A stretch of 32,000 bases of DNA from Alkalimarinus coralli (lineage in GTDB: Bacteria > Pseudomonadota > Gammaproteobacteria > Pseudomonadales > Oleiphilaceae), in the NCBI RefSeq assembly GCF_023650515.1, contig NZ_CP096016.1, positions 523,130 to 555,129 on the forward strand. Reading direction: 5' to 3'. A program made the translations under genes and the position numbers. This document shows, piece by piece, positions 19,857 through 25,445 of the stretch. Numbering within the stretch: the stretch's first letter is position 1; each line of letters begins with the position of its first letter. Below the pieces are notes generated by a model, which did not search any database, was not told the origin of the DNA, and saw only the letters and a program-made list of their open reading frames with translations.

Positions 19857-22154
19857 TTATCCATTCCATGACAAGAGATCGTGCTGTTTGAATCCAAATA
19901 ATTTGGTCAGTAGTACATCCGGAAAGGTCTGTATGCGGGCGTTATAGATCTCGACTGCATCCAGGTAGCCCTCCCTCATCATCGATAACTCGTCCTCAAT
20001 ATCGGTGATAGAATCCATCAGTTGCTTGATTACCTGATGGCTCAAAAGTTCAGGATATTGCTCTATGATAGCTTTCATGCTTGTTGATAGTGGGTGCGCA
20101 TTTGGCGTTTGCCCCGCCTTATCTTGGTGACTCATATTATCTGGTTGATACCGACGCCTTAATGCTGTTATCTGTTCGAGTAATGATTTTTCATGCGCTA
20201 AATAGTGCTTAACGCTTTTCTCGAGATTGGGGATTAAATCAAATCTCTTTTGAAGTACCACCTTGATGTTGGCGATGTTTCGTTCAACCCGCTGGCGTAA
20301 AAATATAATATCGTTGTAGTGAAGAATAACCATAAACCCGATCATAAATATCGGGGCCGTTAGCGCTGACAGTAGAAAGTTGTCTGGGCTGAGACCACCG
20401 CTACTGGCAAACAGAAGCAGAGCACCCAATAATAGAGCACTAAATGCCATGTTGAGAAAAATCATGCCGTTTCGGGCTTTTCGCAGCATGACTTGTTGTT
20501 CTGACAGGTTGCTCAAAATAAACGGTACTGACTTATCGCCATCGGCTATCTGTAAGCGAGCAGGGTCATTTTCATCTACCTGGGCAGAACCAATCGCGTA
20601 AAGTGTTTCATTGGGCTTCAGATACTCCTCCGTGTAGCGGTAGCGACCTTCTCGGGTTACCTTTTTGTTGCTTGAAATAACGTCGGCATTGTCGGCGATA
20701 ATTTTCATCTTGCCGGTGTAATCGGAGACGAAAAATGGCAGCTGTTTTCTCTCTTCAACCAGCGTTACCCATTTCTCGTTCTTTCCGCTTTTTCGTTTCT
20801 CTTCCTTCTTGTAGTAATACCATACGGACTTTTTGCCGGTGACAGGTGTCGTTAAATAAGCTTCACTGTCTGCGCACTCTATTTTGCCTTTTATCTCTGC
20901 CAGACCGTAAACAACACCAGAAACTTTAGAGGTCGGTATGCTTTCAATAAAACGCTTAAAGCGTATTTTACGAAACCCCACGTAACTGGCGATCAGCATA
21001 CCTGCCAAAGCGGCTAAGGCGACCCAGCGAACCCAGCTATCTGAAATACTGGTCGCTTTGAGTTGGTTAAGCTGCTGCTCTACTTTGTCTTTTTCTTCTT
21101 TAGTTAGGCCTATCGTTTTTTGTTGAATATCTATACCCATTGACCAGCCAATCAGGCTGTCGGGAAACTGTGCCAGCTGTCGTTTTAATTGGGCTTGATA
21201 GAGTGCAAGATTGACTTTTAAATCTGATAGCCGTTGTAACGCTGAGACATCAACGCCAGCATCGGCATACTCGTTGTAATTGGTGGGCGTCTCTAGTGAC
21301 AGCTCTGACTCAAGTTGTGGCACATTGGCAGCACTAATTGCTTGTTGAACGACCTCATATTGTGAGGATAGGCGTGTCATACTTGCGTTGAGGTCACCGC
21401 TTAACATGGTTATACCCAAGTGCAGCAAAACCAGTGTGAGAGTGAAGGTGAGTATTGATAGGTAGGTGATGATCCGGTGAATCTTGATCGCCCAGATAAC
21501 AAAAAGTACTGCAAATGCTAGCGCTACCAAGCCGAGCCAAATAAAAAATATACCGCTTTTGCCTTTCTCTCCCCGTTCATAGTCAAGACCGTATTTTGAA
21601 ACGATAGGGGTATAAACTCCTTCGGGTGTAAAAGCCAATCTGGCCGAACCGCTGTTTCCTAGCGCGTAGGCGGTTACACTGACCTCTTGTCCGGGCTCGA
21701 TTCGCCACTCGGTGTGACGGTACTTGCCTACGGTTGTACGCATTGATGAAGGCATTGACCAAAGAATAGGCTGGGTACGACTTTCGTTAGTTGACACGTT
21801 AATCGAGCCAGTAGCGTCAGTAATGGTAAAGTCCACGGCCCTATGCTCATCTGTTACAGTGACCCAGTGGCGATCCCCATCCGAATCGACCCTCTCTTCT
21901 TCGTGCAAATAGCGGTAGTAGACAGAGGGCGTGTCGCTATATCTGCTTTGGAGAAGGGACGCCTGAGGTGTGACTTTACCTTTAACACTGACTTCGCCCT
22001 GTAAAACCGTGTTGATTGAAATTTCCGGAATACGTTCAAGTTGTCTGATACGTTCTATTTCATCGAACCCTTTTGGCAGCAGCATGAAGGCGACAAAACA
22101 GAGCGCTGCCGCAATGCAAAGAAATAGAAGAGGAGAGGTGAGTGCTTTTTTCAT
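19857..22154 (-). CDS. Polytopic membrane protein: [TM-GIDE-like module] x2 fused to a C-terminal LemA domain
   Basis: This is a single 765-codon ORF. Hydrophobic helices lie at aa 8-26, 201-222, 228-250, 374-394, 563-585 and 592-612. Two homologous soluble modules span aa ~40-195 and ~400-555. The LemA hallmarks lie at aa ~613-765 (KRFDLIPNL, EQYPELL, YNARIQTFP..FGF). Confidence 0.7.
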   Translation of the reverse strand: MKKALTSPLLFLCIAAALCFVAFMLLPKGFDEIERIRQLERIPEISINTVLQGEVSVKGKVTPQASLLQSRYSDTPSVYYRYLHEEERVDSDGDRHWVTVTDEHRAVDFTITDATGSINVSTNESRTQPILWSMPSSMRTTVGKYRHTEWRIEPGQEVSVTAYALGNSGSARLAFTPEGVYTPIVSKYGLDYERGEKGKSGIFFIWLGLVALAFAVLFVIWAIKIHRIITYLSILTFTLTLVLLHLGITMLSGDLNASMTRLSSQYEVVQQAISAANVPQLESELSLETPTNYNEYADAGVDVSALQRLSDLKVNLALYQAQLKRQLAQFPDSLIGWSMGIDIQQKTIGLTKEEKDKVEQQLNQLKATSISDSWVRWVALAALAGMLIASYVGFRKIRFKRFIESIPTSKVSGVVYGLAEIKGKIECADSEAYLTTPVTGKKSVWYYYKKEEKRKSGKNEKWVTLVEERKQLPFFVSDYTGKMKIIADNADVISSNKKVTREGRYRYTEEYLKPNETLYAIGSAQVDENDPARLQIADGDKSVPFILSNLSEQQVMLRKARNGMIFLNMAFSALLLGALLLFASSGGLSPDNFLLSALTAPIFMIGFMVILHYNDIIFLRQRVERNIANIKVVLQKRFDLIPNLEKSVKHYLAHEKSLLEQITALRRRYQPDNMSHQDKAGQTPNAHPLSTSMKAIIEQYPELLSHQVIKQLMDSITDIEDELSMMREGYLDAVEIYNARIQTFPDVLLTKLFGFKQHDLLSWNG

Positions 22155-22270: not shown

Positions 22271-22312
22271 AATTTAAATCTATGAATTTAAATCTATGAA
22301 CTTAAACCTATA
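22271..22312. repeat. Three tandem copies of a 14-bp unit overlapping the polB stop codon
   Basis: aatttaaatctatg occurs at 22271-22284 and 22285-22298, followed by aacttaaacctata at 22299-22312. A degenerate copy aattttacctatc lies at 22258-22270. The polB TAG is the reverse complement of 22308-22310. Confidence 0.85.
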
Positions 22313-24790: not shown

Positions 24791-25300
24791 TTACTCGTCT
24801 GTTTCACCTGCTATCGGGAAATTAACGCCTATTGTCCACATGGCTCCAGCGGCGCCAAAAAGTGCGATTTCAGACTGAACCCGCTTATATCTAACCCCAA
24901 TAGATGGCAATATGGCGGGGGCTACGCCAGCCTGATTTAACGGGATCTTATCTTTATACTTCCCATCGTAACCATGCATCAGCCCGCCTACAAGCTTGAT
25001 ATACATAAAATCTTGCGTATGTGGGATTGTCCAGTTGTAACCCAGGTAAGCAAACTGGGAGTTTTGGCCAAAAGAGTTCTTGAAAAATGCCAACCCGCCA
25101 AGCCAGTTTGATGCTTTTTGAAGTTCTAAATTGATCAGGTCCTGTTTGTTGTTATGATCATCTTGAGGGTCAAAGTGCACCGTATACAAGCTGGTTTGAA
25201 AATAGAACTGATCTCCTTCTTCCAACCAGTCTCCATAAACGTTAATTGAGGTGACACTGAGTACAAAAAGTAGAGAGAGGGCTGCTATATTTTGGATCAT
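24791..25300 (-). CDS. Small outer-membrane beta-barrel protein, PagP-like (possible lipid A palmitoyltransferase family)
   Basis: From ATG 25300 the signal peptide is MIQNIAALSLLFVLSVTSINVYG; the ORF is open from 25363. A by-eye alignment to E. coli PagP pairs TVHF with TWHA, GLAFFKNSF with AMAFKDSW, LGYNW with GYGW, and IP...LPSIGVRY with IP..LPLASVGY. Confidence 0.4.
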   Translation of the reverse strand: MIQNIAALSLLFVLSVTSINVYGDWLEEGDQFYFQTSLYTVHFDPQDDHNNKQDLINLELQKASNWLGGLAFFKNSFGQNSQFAYLGYNWTIPHTQDFMYIKLVGGLMHGYDGKYKDKIPLNQAGVAPAILPSIGVRYKRVQSEIALFGAAGAMWTIGVNFPIAGETDE

Positions 25301-25445
25301 TGTTCCGGCTGTTAATGGCAAGTCTAAAAATCGTGGATTATAGACGATTTTTATGGCAATCAATATGAATTTAAGCTGAAATAGTCAACAAACACCCCCA
25401 TATATTGTTTTAACTATATTTATCAGTGGGTTCCCTTTCTATTAC

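Follow-up and report, generated by a model that had tools for sequence, protein, structure and literature searches.

A widespread GIDE-GIDE-LemA fusion protein as a candidate single-chain form of a two-gene bacterial membrane module

Introduction

A 32,000-nt stretch of DNA from Alkalimarinus coralli (hereafter the window) contains an ORF whose product joins two GIDE modules and a LemA domain in one chain. A typical LemA is a single-TM protein of ~190 aa, with the order TM, bundle; standalone GIDE proteins have the order TM, domain, TM. The locus raises the question of whether such a fusion is real and recurrent, whether it reports on LemA and GIDE working together, as originally predicted from the window, and what a protein built in this way might do at the membrane.

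Results

The fusion gene occupies positions 19857 to 22154 of the window on the minus strand, a strand that the original prediction had not given. It is one uninterrupted ATG-started ORF of 765 aa plus stop, as had been described; all peptides quoted at that time were found in the translation, which is 100% identical to the NCBI 'LemA family protein' of A. coralli. The GC content of the gene is 45.7%, against 46.2% for the window.

Domain assignments were made by Pfam scan. LemA (PF04011) was found over aa 627-762 with 116.4 bits (cut-off 26.2), and the domain matched PDB 2ETD at E=9.2e-24, query residues 611-758 being aligned to residues 8-154 of the chain, with the conserved polar residues of the LemA family kept; R637, H654, E655, E698 and E720 are the invariant ones. 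GIDE (PF12483, cut-off 23.6) was found with 66 bits in two stretches of the whole protein. When scanned alone, module B scored 50 bits and module A 21.9 bits (E=1.3e-4), the latter slightly under the cut-off. Modules A and B share 29% identity across 157 aa by BLASTP (E=4e-16), and profile-profile comparison in hhalign gave a probability of 99.65% (E=3.9e-25, 150 columns). Judged by these alignments, the internal duplication of the GIDE module is far beyond chance. Both domain assignments and the homology of A and B proposed earlier were thus borne out. The conserved Glu in the Pfam description of GIDE, which we take to be the Glu of the two RYTE motifs (E149 and E509), was invariant among 18 homologues, and the motif was conserved over 79. 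No RING or zinc-finger family was found in the protein by Pfam scan, and structure searches detected no informative solved relative of the GIDE fold.

Six hydrophobic segments were identified by Kyte-Doolittle hydropathy (Table 1), which bracket both GIDE modules (TM1-A-TM2 and TM4-B-TM5). The AF2 model was confident (pLDDT 82.7, pTM 0.71). Module A is all-beta, acidic and nearly Cys-free, with conserved motifs RDSDGD..W and RYTEW. The loop between TM2 and TM3 has four residues, is basic and contains the invariant H226. Of the two copies, module B resembles standalone GIDE proteins more closely. In the linker region, helices were modelled at 228-275, 303-328, 332-338 and 352-364 with a non-helical stretch between; of the coiled coil originally described, the helices were retained but not a single long coil. 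The linker is the least conserved region, with a mean pairwise identity of 21%. TM6 is the counterpart of LemA's own N-terminal TM and runs on into LemA helix 1, the two being modelled as one helix (590-669), with further helices at 688-705, 707-741 and 746-753.

Table 1. Features of the fusion gene and its upstream region, in window coordinates.
Feature	Position	Strand	Basis
Whole ORF, GIDE-GIDE-LemA fusion protein	19857..22154	-	translation, NCBI match
TM1, aa 8-26, preceded by MKK, signal-anchor-like, N-terminus predicted cytoplasmic	22077..22133	-	hydropathy, charge
GIDE module A and stalk helices, aa 27-201	21552..22076	-	Pfam, AF2, hhalign, composition
TM2 (aa 202-223), loop KIHR and TM3 (aa 228-250), hairpin	21405..21551	-	hydropathy, conservation
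Helical linker, aa 251-374	21033..21404	-	AF2, composition over 79 homologues
TM4, aa 375-394, followed by strongly basic RKIRFKRFIE	20973..21032	-	hydropathy, charge
GIDE module B, aa 395-563	20466..20972	-	50 bits vs PF12483, composition
TM5 (aa 564-584), short acidic loop (aa 585-592) and TM6 (aa 593-612)	20319..20465	-	hydropathy, AF2
LemA domain, aa 613-765, helical bundle	19860..20318	-	Pfam, AF2, 2ETD match
Exact tandem 14-nt repeat, TTCATAGATTTAAA x2	22273..22300	-	immediately behind the polB stop codon, within the 153-nt gap

Membrane topology was predicted from the positive-inside rule and from composition (loop charge, domain charge, Cys) over 79 members. A net positive charge is found on the short TM2-3 loop in 74/79 and on the flank after TM4 in 78/79; the TM5-6 loop is positive in none and acidic in 59. 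Module A is acidic in 64/79 members with a mean of 0.5 Cys, and the linker is Cys-free in 78/79. Module B is basic in 61/79 and contains Cys in 78/79. These values point to a cytoplasmic N-terminus, a periplasmic module A, linker and TM5-6 loop, and a cytoplasmic His loop, module B and LemA. The two modules, first described as GIDE-like membrane modules, are not equivalent; the sequence statistics place them on opposite membrane faces. C-terminal TerB fusions occur in some relatives, although rarely, and are consistent with a cytoplasmic C-terminus. In standalone GIDE proteins, basic residues flank the TMs on the domain side; in standalone LemA, K/R residues are absent ahead of the TM but abundant behind it. 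The C-terminal half of the fusion (TM4, B, TM5, TM6, LemA) would have the topology of a standalone GIDE joined to a standalone LemA.

Related proteins were collected by alignment-based and exhaustive searches; a word-index search with module B alone gave two proteins and missed the family. The fused architecture was found uninterrupted in at least 111 species-level genomes, from Gammaproteobacteria, Verrucomicrobiota and other PVC bacteria, Planctomycetota, and Bradymonadales/Myxococcales. The exhaustive search gave 828 cluster representatives at E<1e-30, and among the best 150 of these ~125 are at least 700 aa long. Hahella, Saccharophagus, Kangiella/Aliikangiella and Roseibacillus are among the carriers. 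A single ORF spans HMM positions 1-762 in nearly all of 79 loci. The fusion is a conserved family and not a one-off, and the fused architecture is neither an artefact nor unique. The architecture is abundant, but no characterised member was found. The C-terminal extension of homologues from the PVC group matched no Pfam family. Two apparent single-module GIDE-LemA proteins (P0144 and P0164) were considered as evolutionary intermediates and rejected, because their genes begin 25 and 5 nt from contig ends and their reading frames stay open as far as the edge. Both are almost certainly double-module proteins that have been truncated.

Neighbours of the closest standalone GIDE genes were inspected, a check that the original prediction had proposed. 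A lemA gene encoding ~190 aa lies immediately upstream on the same strand at 21 of 22 assessable loci, with a 12-nt gap or a 4-nt overlap in example operons. The partner is a TM-GIDE-EF-hand-TM protein of ~310-320 aa that is 34% identical to module B. The canonical EF-hand loop DxNxDGxIDxxE is present in 22/25 of the lemA-paired standalone GIDE sequences, and of the best 120 clusters (from at least 965), over half carry annotated Pfam EF-hand families. Since other bacteria encode both domains in adjacent genes, the LemA and GIDE families, on this genomic evidence, very probably work together, and the prediction that they do so passed this check. The operons have lemA before GIDE and the fusion has GIDE before LemA; with this reversed domain order, the fusion is no simple read-through of the operon. 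The open literature searched contained nothing tying LemA to GIDE and no description of the lemA-GIDE two-gene operon; for LemA with a TPM domain and LemA with TerB, it held nothing mechanistic.

Around the fusion gene, the same-strand intergenic gaps of 50, 153 and 220 nt had been given correctly. The neighbour called 'PagP-like' had no Pfam or NCBIfam match even at E<=10. Across 81 loci of the family, no neighbouring gene family occurred in more than 11, at scattered positions, and polB was a neighbour in only 3. Upstream of the fusion gene, the tandem repeat of TTCATAGATTTAAA coincides in part with the -35 of a promoter-like site and may be regulatory; terminator and promoter scans gave results at background levels.

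Discussion

The preferred reading, to which we give a probability slightly above one half (about 0.55), is that the protein is a self-contained six-helix inner-membrane protein, the single-chain form of the widespread two-gene LemA-GIDE module with a second, inverted GIDE copy added, and that it serves as a membrane scaffold or sensor. The function within this reading, membrane remodelling by LemA and regulation or sensing by GIDE, is a best guess and the weakest step of the explanation. By analogy, LemA would use its long first helix and its bundle, on the cytoplasmic membrane face, to organise the membrane around it or the partners bound there, or to remodel them. This proposal was drawn from those made for MamQ, the sole LemA member that has been connected with a process, magnetosome membrane formation (PMC4902198), and for mycobacterial ML0451c, in models of which the LemA-like domain acts as a scaffold on the cytoplasmic side of the membrane (bioRxiv 10.64898/2026.07.15.738315). 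Cytoplasmic GIDE-B, which adjoins LemA, would regulate it, and periplasmic GIDE-A and the linker would relay a signal from the envelope through TM2-TM4; as guesses, this signal could be divalent cations or damage to the envelope. The protein probably acts alone or as a homo-oligomer, because the 81 loci hold no conserved gene partners.

Several other explanations were weighed. The chance that the ORF is an assembly or frameshift artefact joining separate genes is negligible; its unusual length is all that would suggest this, and the idea is already refuted by 78 independent full-length orthologues, which come from both isolates and MAGs in several phyla, have 30-68% identity and keep the same single ORF. 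It is improbable that both GIDE modules are extracytoplasmic, or that the protein has the opposite orientation throughout, which would put LemA in the periplasm and confine the action of the protein to that side, although the BAM/GIDE domain of human MAPL/MUL1 faces the intermembrane space (PMC4457424) and the C-terminal domain of MamQ/LemA was once predicted to be lumenal or extracytoplasmic (PMC3905215). The three hydrophobic helices between A and B force the modules onto opposite faces, and a flipped orientation is at odds with the short-loop charges, the basic flanks after TM4 and TM6 and the Cys asymmetry over 79 members. Slightly less probable again is a role in an envelope or DNA-damage stress unit with polB and the c-di-GMP phosphodiesterase, co-regulated with the fusion gene. 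The genes in the window share a strand; in A. alittae, the sister species, their order is kept and the fusion gene overlaps polB by 4 nt, and a 7TMR-DISM GGDEF gene adjoins the Reinekea orthologue, though in convergent orientation. Against this, the Exilibacterium and Reinekea orthologues have unrelated neighbours, and between polB and the fusion gene in A. coralli lie a 153-nt gap and a promoter-like site. As the polB/7TMR-DISM neighbourhood recurs in so few of the loci, it says nothing about general function and was dropped as a clue; lineage-specific co-expression with polB is possible.

A cation-triggered sensor of membrane damage, in which LemA-GIDE responds to influx or binding of Ca2+ or another metal with an additional, cation-binding copy supplied by the fusion on the periplasmic side, would account for the EF-hands of the lemA-paired GIDE proteins and of the wider clusters, and could also explain the near-invariant acidic hairpin RDSDGD..W of module A, where module B has RGSGKN.KW. 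TerB, a putative metal-binding domain, ends some family members. We consider this explanation unlikely, if still a candidate, since the window protein itself is without an EF-hand, DSDGD, located in the turn of a beta-hairpin, may be purely structural, and the TerB fusions are rare. TerB domains also occur in some defence systems, and together with a weak PADLOC match to the '4TM effector' model they could hint at an anti-phage or abortive-infection membrane effector, or a toxin. That match (E=0.0038, 14.5 bits) was the best in PADLOC-DB, where no defence model was matched significantly. There are no defence genes nearby, no mobile-element genes among the Pfam-annotated neighbours in the window and no partner genes conserved in the 81 loci; the chromosomal context is stable and the GC content of the gene matches that of the window. 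A defence role is accordingly very improbable.

Returning to the single-chain LemA-GIDE module, a bolder extension, which we offer as a long shot, is that the inverted duplication forms a trans-membrane relay, in which a periplasmic, cation-binding GIDE would signal the condition of the envelope to a cytoplasmic GIDE-LemA pair, and this pair would remodel or repair the membrane. If true, it would, with the EF-hand lemA-GIDE operons, amount to a widespread bacterial membrane-maintenance system responsive to Ca2+ or damage, and would provide the first functional clue to the ancestral role played by the BAM/GIDE domain of MUL1/MAPL. Homologous soluble domains on opposite faces in one chain are unusual and, if confirmed, relevant to membrane-protein evolution. 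Through the cross-phylum fusion and the near-obligate gene pair, two large and broadly distributed orphan families become one testable module.

Among known systems, the C-terminal 150 aa are canonical for the LemA family (PF04011; Listeria LemA; Thermotoga maritima LemA, PDB 2ETD). As in standalone LemA, a TM helix directly precedes a bundle with a long first helix, but standalone LemA has ~190 aa and one TM, and here LemA forms the C-terminal end of a six-TM chain of 765 aa. MamQ shares the LemA domain; the fusion protein scores only 69 bits against NCBIfam MamQ NF040966 (cut-off 250), which rules it out as a MamQ orthologue, and it has no magnetosome context. ML0451c likewise has a LemA-like domain fused to another module, and a proposed role as a cytoplasmic-face scaffold that itself comes from structure prediction; its partner is NUDIX instead of GIDE, and it belongs to a PIM biosynthesis operon.

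The eukaryotic mitochondrial outer-membrane E3 ligase MUL1/MAPL/GIDE has the TM-GIDE-TM unit in common with the fusion, and the same Pfam family PF12483. In contrast to MUL1, which carries a RING finger at its C-terminus behind the second TM and whose GIDE domain faces the IMS, the fusion has LemA at its C-terminus and one GIDE copy predicted to be cytoplasmic; lacking a RING domain, it is no E3 ligase. No prokaryotic BAM proteins have a RING (PMC4457424). The 'E3 ubiquitin ligase' names on bacterial GIDE members are carried-over annotation. MUL1/MAPL is medically studied, and a function for bacterial GIDE would inform the role of its GIDE domain. The lemA-GIDE operons bring the same two domains together, with soluble domains in the same predicted cytoplasmic orientation; the fusion differs in having no EF-hand and in its additions, a periplasmic linker and a further GIDE unit in inverted orientation.

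Domain architecture and internal duplication

Translation confirmed the single uninterrupted reading frame of the fusion gene, in which all peptides cited in the original prediction were found, and the gaps of 50, 153 and 220 nt between neighbouring genes were correct on re-measurement. Feature positions are listed in the table. Six hydrophobic segments (residues 8-26, 202-223, 228-250, 375-394, 564-584 and 593-612; TM1 to TM6) were located by a Kyte-Doolittle scan with a 19-residue window, which detected none in the linker (251-374). The GC content of the gene is 45.7%, against 46.2% for the window, which contains no further LemA or GIDE ORF.

Features of the fusion locus (window coordinates)
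Feature	Position	Strand	Description
Fusion ORF	19857..22154	minus	ATG start, 765 aa, uninterrupted
Tandem 14-nt repeat	22273-22300	minus	Two exact copies of TTCATAGATTTAAA, directly after the polB stop codon
ORF upstream of polB	24791-25363	minus	190 aa, 'PagP-like' in the original prediction

The whole protein was scanned against Pfam, giving LemA (PF04011, 116.4 bits, aa 627-762) and GIDE (PF12483, 66 bits across two stretches). Scanned on its own, module B scored 50 bits against PF12483, module A scored 21.9 bits (E = 1.3e-4; the cut-off of 23.6 bits lies marginally above), and the linker had no Pfam match. The T. maritima LemA structure 2ETD matched the LemA part at E = 9.2e-24. Assignment as a MamQ orthologue was rejected (69 bits versus a cut-off of 250). 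No RING or other catalytic family was found in the fusion protein, and the 'E3 ubiquitin ligase' names on relatives are therefore regarded as carried over.

Modules A and B share 29% identity over 157 aa including the TM helix before each (E = 4e-16). Profiles built from 14 orthologues per module aligned over 150 columns with 99.65% probability (E = 3.9e-25). Common motifs are R..E.IP after the TM, G-E, YY/WY, W, F..D..G and RYTE, the Glu of the last being invariant (E149 in A, E509 in B).

Distribution of the family

A first, word-indexed search yielded 18 full-length homologues at 30-68% identity in Alkalimarinus, Exilibacterium and Reinekea. An exhaustive profile search of 1.84 billion cluster representatives gave 21,169 matches at E<=1e-3, mainly ordinary LemA proteins, and 828 at E<=1e-30; of the best 150, about 125 reach 700 aa or more and align end to end. 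Relatives were found in 111 genomes by a pattern scan with one genome per species. They occur in Gammaproteobacteria (Oleiphilaceae, Kangiella/Aliikangiella/Pleionea, Kistimonas/Endozoicomonadaceae, Hahella, Saccharophagus, Luminiphilus, Nitrincola, Litoribacillus, Ketobacter), Verrucomicrobiota and other PVC bacteria (Roseibacillus, Akkermansiaceae, Victivallales, Kiritimatiellia), Planctomycetota (Kolteria) and Bradymonadales/Myxococcales. One ORF spans profile positions 1-762 in nearly all of 79 fetched loci. Because of this wide spread and the single ORF, the fusion is considered old or widely transferred, and under selection as a single chain.

PVC-group members (Verrucomicrobiota, Victivallales, Kiritimatiellia) are 1050-1120 aa long (e.g. 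L012:5860-9207, L020:5887-9156, L040:5989-9237), with a soluble, helical C-terminal extension of 230-320 aa that no Pfam family matches. Some members carry one or two copies of TerB (PF05099) C-terminal to LemA (P0153, 1016 aa; P0154, 877 aa). Two full-length fusion paralogues lie in tandem in a Myxococcales MAG (L055:341-2887 and L055:3224-5722). On metagenomic contig L113 a standalone 199-aa LemA gene (1261-1860, minus) and a truncated fusion gene stand in convergent orientation; since both are on one contig, ordinary LemA and the fusion can coexist in one genome. Single-module GIDE-LemA proteins of 415-450 aa were considered as evolutionary intermediates and dropped: the genes begin only 25 and 5 nt from the ends of their contigs, their frames are open there, and they are therefore truncated.

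Standalone lemA-GIDE gene pairs

The closest standalone relatives of module B, P0165 and P0166 (316-319 aa), are each preceded on the same strand by a lemA gene of 190-192 aa, which either ends 12 nt before the GIDE gene or overlaps it by 4 nt. A metagenome scan queried with both proteins gave 27 loci, in which lemA and GIDE were called by HMMs from the window family. Immediately upstream of GIDE, on the same strand, lay lemA in 21 of the 22 loci with sufficient upstream sequence (the exception being L108), bearing out the predicted LemA-GIDE association. The standalone GIDE family comprises at least 965 clusters, almost all of 305-325 aa. Judged from gene content, LemA and GIDE are linked in two ways, by fusion and by conserved adjacency. 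The order is lemA then GIDE in the operon and GIDE then LemA in the fusion, so the fusion was not made by simple stop-codon loss.

Of 25 standalone GIDE proteins encoded after lemA (L086-L112, L004, L005; e.g. L004:2661-3620), 22 have a canonical EF-hand loop (DxNxDGxIDxxE), placed after the beta-domain and ahead of the C-terminal TM, and precomputed Pfam EF-hand families are assigned to over half of the 120 best standalone GIDE relatives. In 8-11 of 29 operon loci, lemA-GIDE is followed by a Peptidase_M3 gene (~679 aa, oligopeptidase-A-like; L004:3660-5699 and its counterparts in L086-L112), whose presence may point to a third partner or to mere lineage synteny.

Membrane topology

Provided that all six segments are membrane-spanning, A and B must lie on opposite faces, because three helices (TM2, TM3, TM4) intervene. 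Charge and Cys statistics were taken from 79 family members, plus the 18-member set, and several of them concur in assigning the faces. The TM2-3 loop (4 residues, holding the invariant H226) is net positive in 74/79, and the TM5-6 loop (8 residues) is positive in none and acidic in 59. Of the flanks, the one following TM4 is positive in 78/79 (mean +3.1); the one following TM6 is positive in 66 and negative in none. Module A is net acidic in 64/79 (mean 0.5 Cys), the linker lacks Cys in 78/79, and module B is net basic in 61/79 with Cys present in 78/79 (mean 2.8). At the N-terminus, MKK precedes a hydrophobic core, which is signal-anchor-like. The best topology, held with moderate confidence, would place the N-terminus inside, module A and the linker in the periplasm, and the His loop, module B and LemA in the cytoplasm.

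Standalone proteins agree with this arrangement: LemA is rich in K/R after its TM and has none ahead of it, and GIDE has YRKR... and ...NRAGK flanks on the domain side. C-terminal TerB in some relatives fits a cytoplasmic C-terminus. Joining standalone GIDE (periplasmic C-terminus) to standalone LemA (periplasmic N-terminus) would give exactly TM4-B-TM5-loop-TM6-LemA. Standalone GIDE is nearer to B (HMM E-values 1e-17 to 1e-32) than to A (1e-8 to 1e-15), which suggests that A is a derived, relocated copy.

Genomic neighbourhood

The order ORF190-polB-fusion-7TMR-DISM PDE is retained in Alkalimarinus. Outside it, in Exilibacterium and Reinekea, the neighbours of the fusion gene differ. When all ORFs of 81 loci were clustered, no neighbour family occurred in more than 11 loci, positions were scattered, and polB was present in only 3. 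On this gene-order evidence the fusion gene is read as functionally autonomous and the window neighbourhood as lineage synteny; the run with polB and 7TMR-DISM thus loses its proposed value as a clue to envelope or stress co-regulation. The 'PagP-like' label was likewise abandoned, the 190-aa ORF having no Pfam or NCBIfam match even at E<=10.

In A. alittae the equivalent position holds a 176-aa ORF with no Pfam match. There polB (L003:5569-8004) and the fusion gene (L003:8001-10199) overlap by 4 nt, which suggests translational coupling; in the window a 153-nt gap separates them. In that gap, upstream of the window's fusion gene, the tandem repeat coincides in part with the -35 of a promoter-like site; no further copies of the repeat occur within the window. 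A GFA-family gene (PF04828) adjoins or is near the orthologue in Exilibacterium (L001:10339-10800) and Reinekea (L002:12032-12394). In Reinekea a convergent 7TMR-DISM GGDEF gene (L002:10166-11947) overlaps the 3' end of the orthologue and echoes the 7TMR-DISM PDE neighbouring the window's fusion gene.

Proposed function and comparison with known systems

The fused, duplicated LemA-GIDE module is kept as one chain. An assembly or frameshift artefact is poorly supported, given the single ORF over the full profile in nearly all 79 loci. So is a polB-linked role, with polB at only 3/81 loci, and so is a role in defence. An inner-membrane scaffold or sensor is favoured with low confidence, on the basis of three precedents. 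MamQ, the only LemA tied to a process, is indispensable if magnetosome membranes are to form (PMC4902198). A LemA-like domain, that of mycobacterial ML0451c, has been modelled as a scaffold at the cytoplasmic membrane face, with a long first helix that may disturb the packing of lipids (bioRxiv 10.64898/2026.07.15.738315). The third is MAPL/MUL1, a factor in membrane dynamics and the one GIDE protein that has been studied, with no known role for its GIDE domain (PMC4457424). In such a scaffold or sensor, LemA, regulated by GIDE-B, would act on bound partners or the cytoplasmic leaflet, and GIDE-A with the linker would sense the envelope. A variant in which Ca2+ or another metal is sensed draws on the EF-hand loops of the standalone GIDE partners, an acidic RDSDGD hairpin that module A has and module B lacks, and the occasional TerB fusions; the EF-hand insert is absent from the window's protein, and the variant is therefore kept as a rival.

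Nothing here is categorically new, since NCBI already has the protein as an automatically annotated entry ('LemA family protein', Alkalimarinus coralli, Alteromonadaceae, Gammaproteobacteria; 100% identity) and LemA and GIDE are both known families. No description of the LemA-GIDE partnership, of the broad GIDE-GIDE-LemA family or of the predicted opposite-face placement of a duplicated GIDE domain was found in the searched literature. With its function proposed at low confidence, the fusion family gives a solid lead, open to testing, on the orphan families LemA and GIDE.
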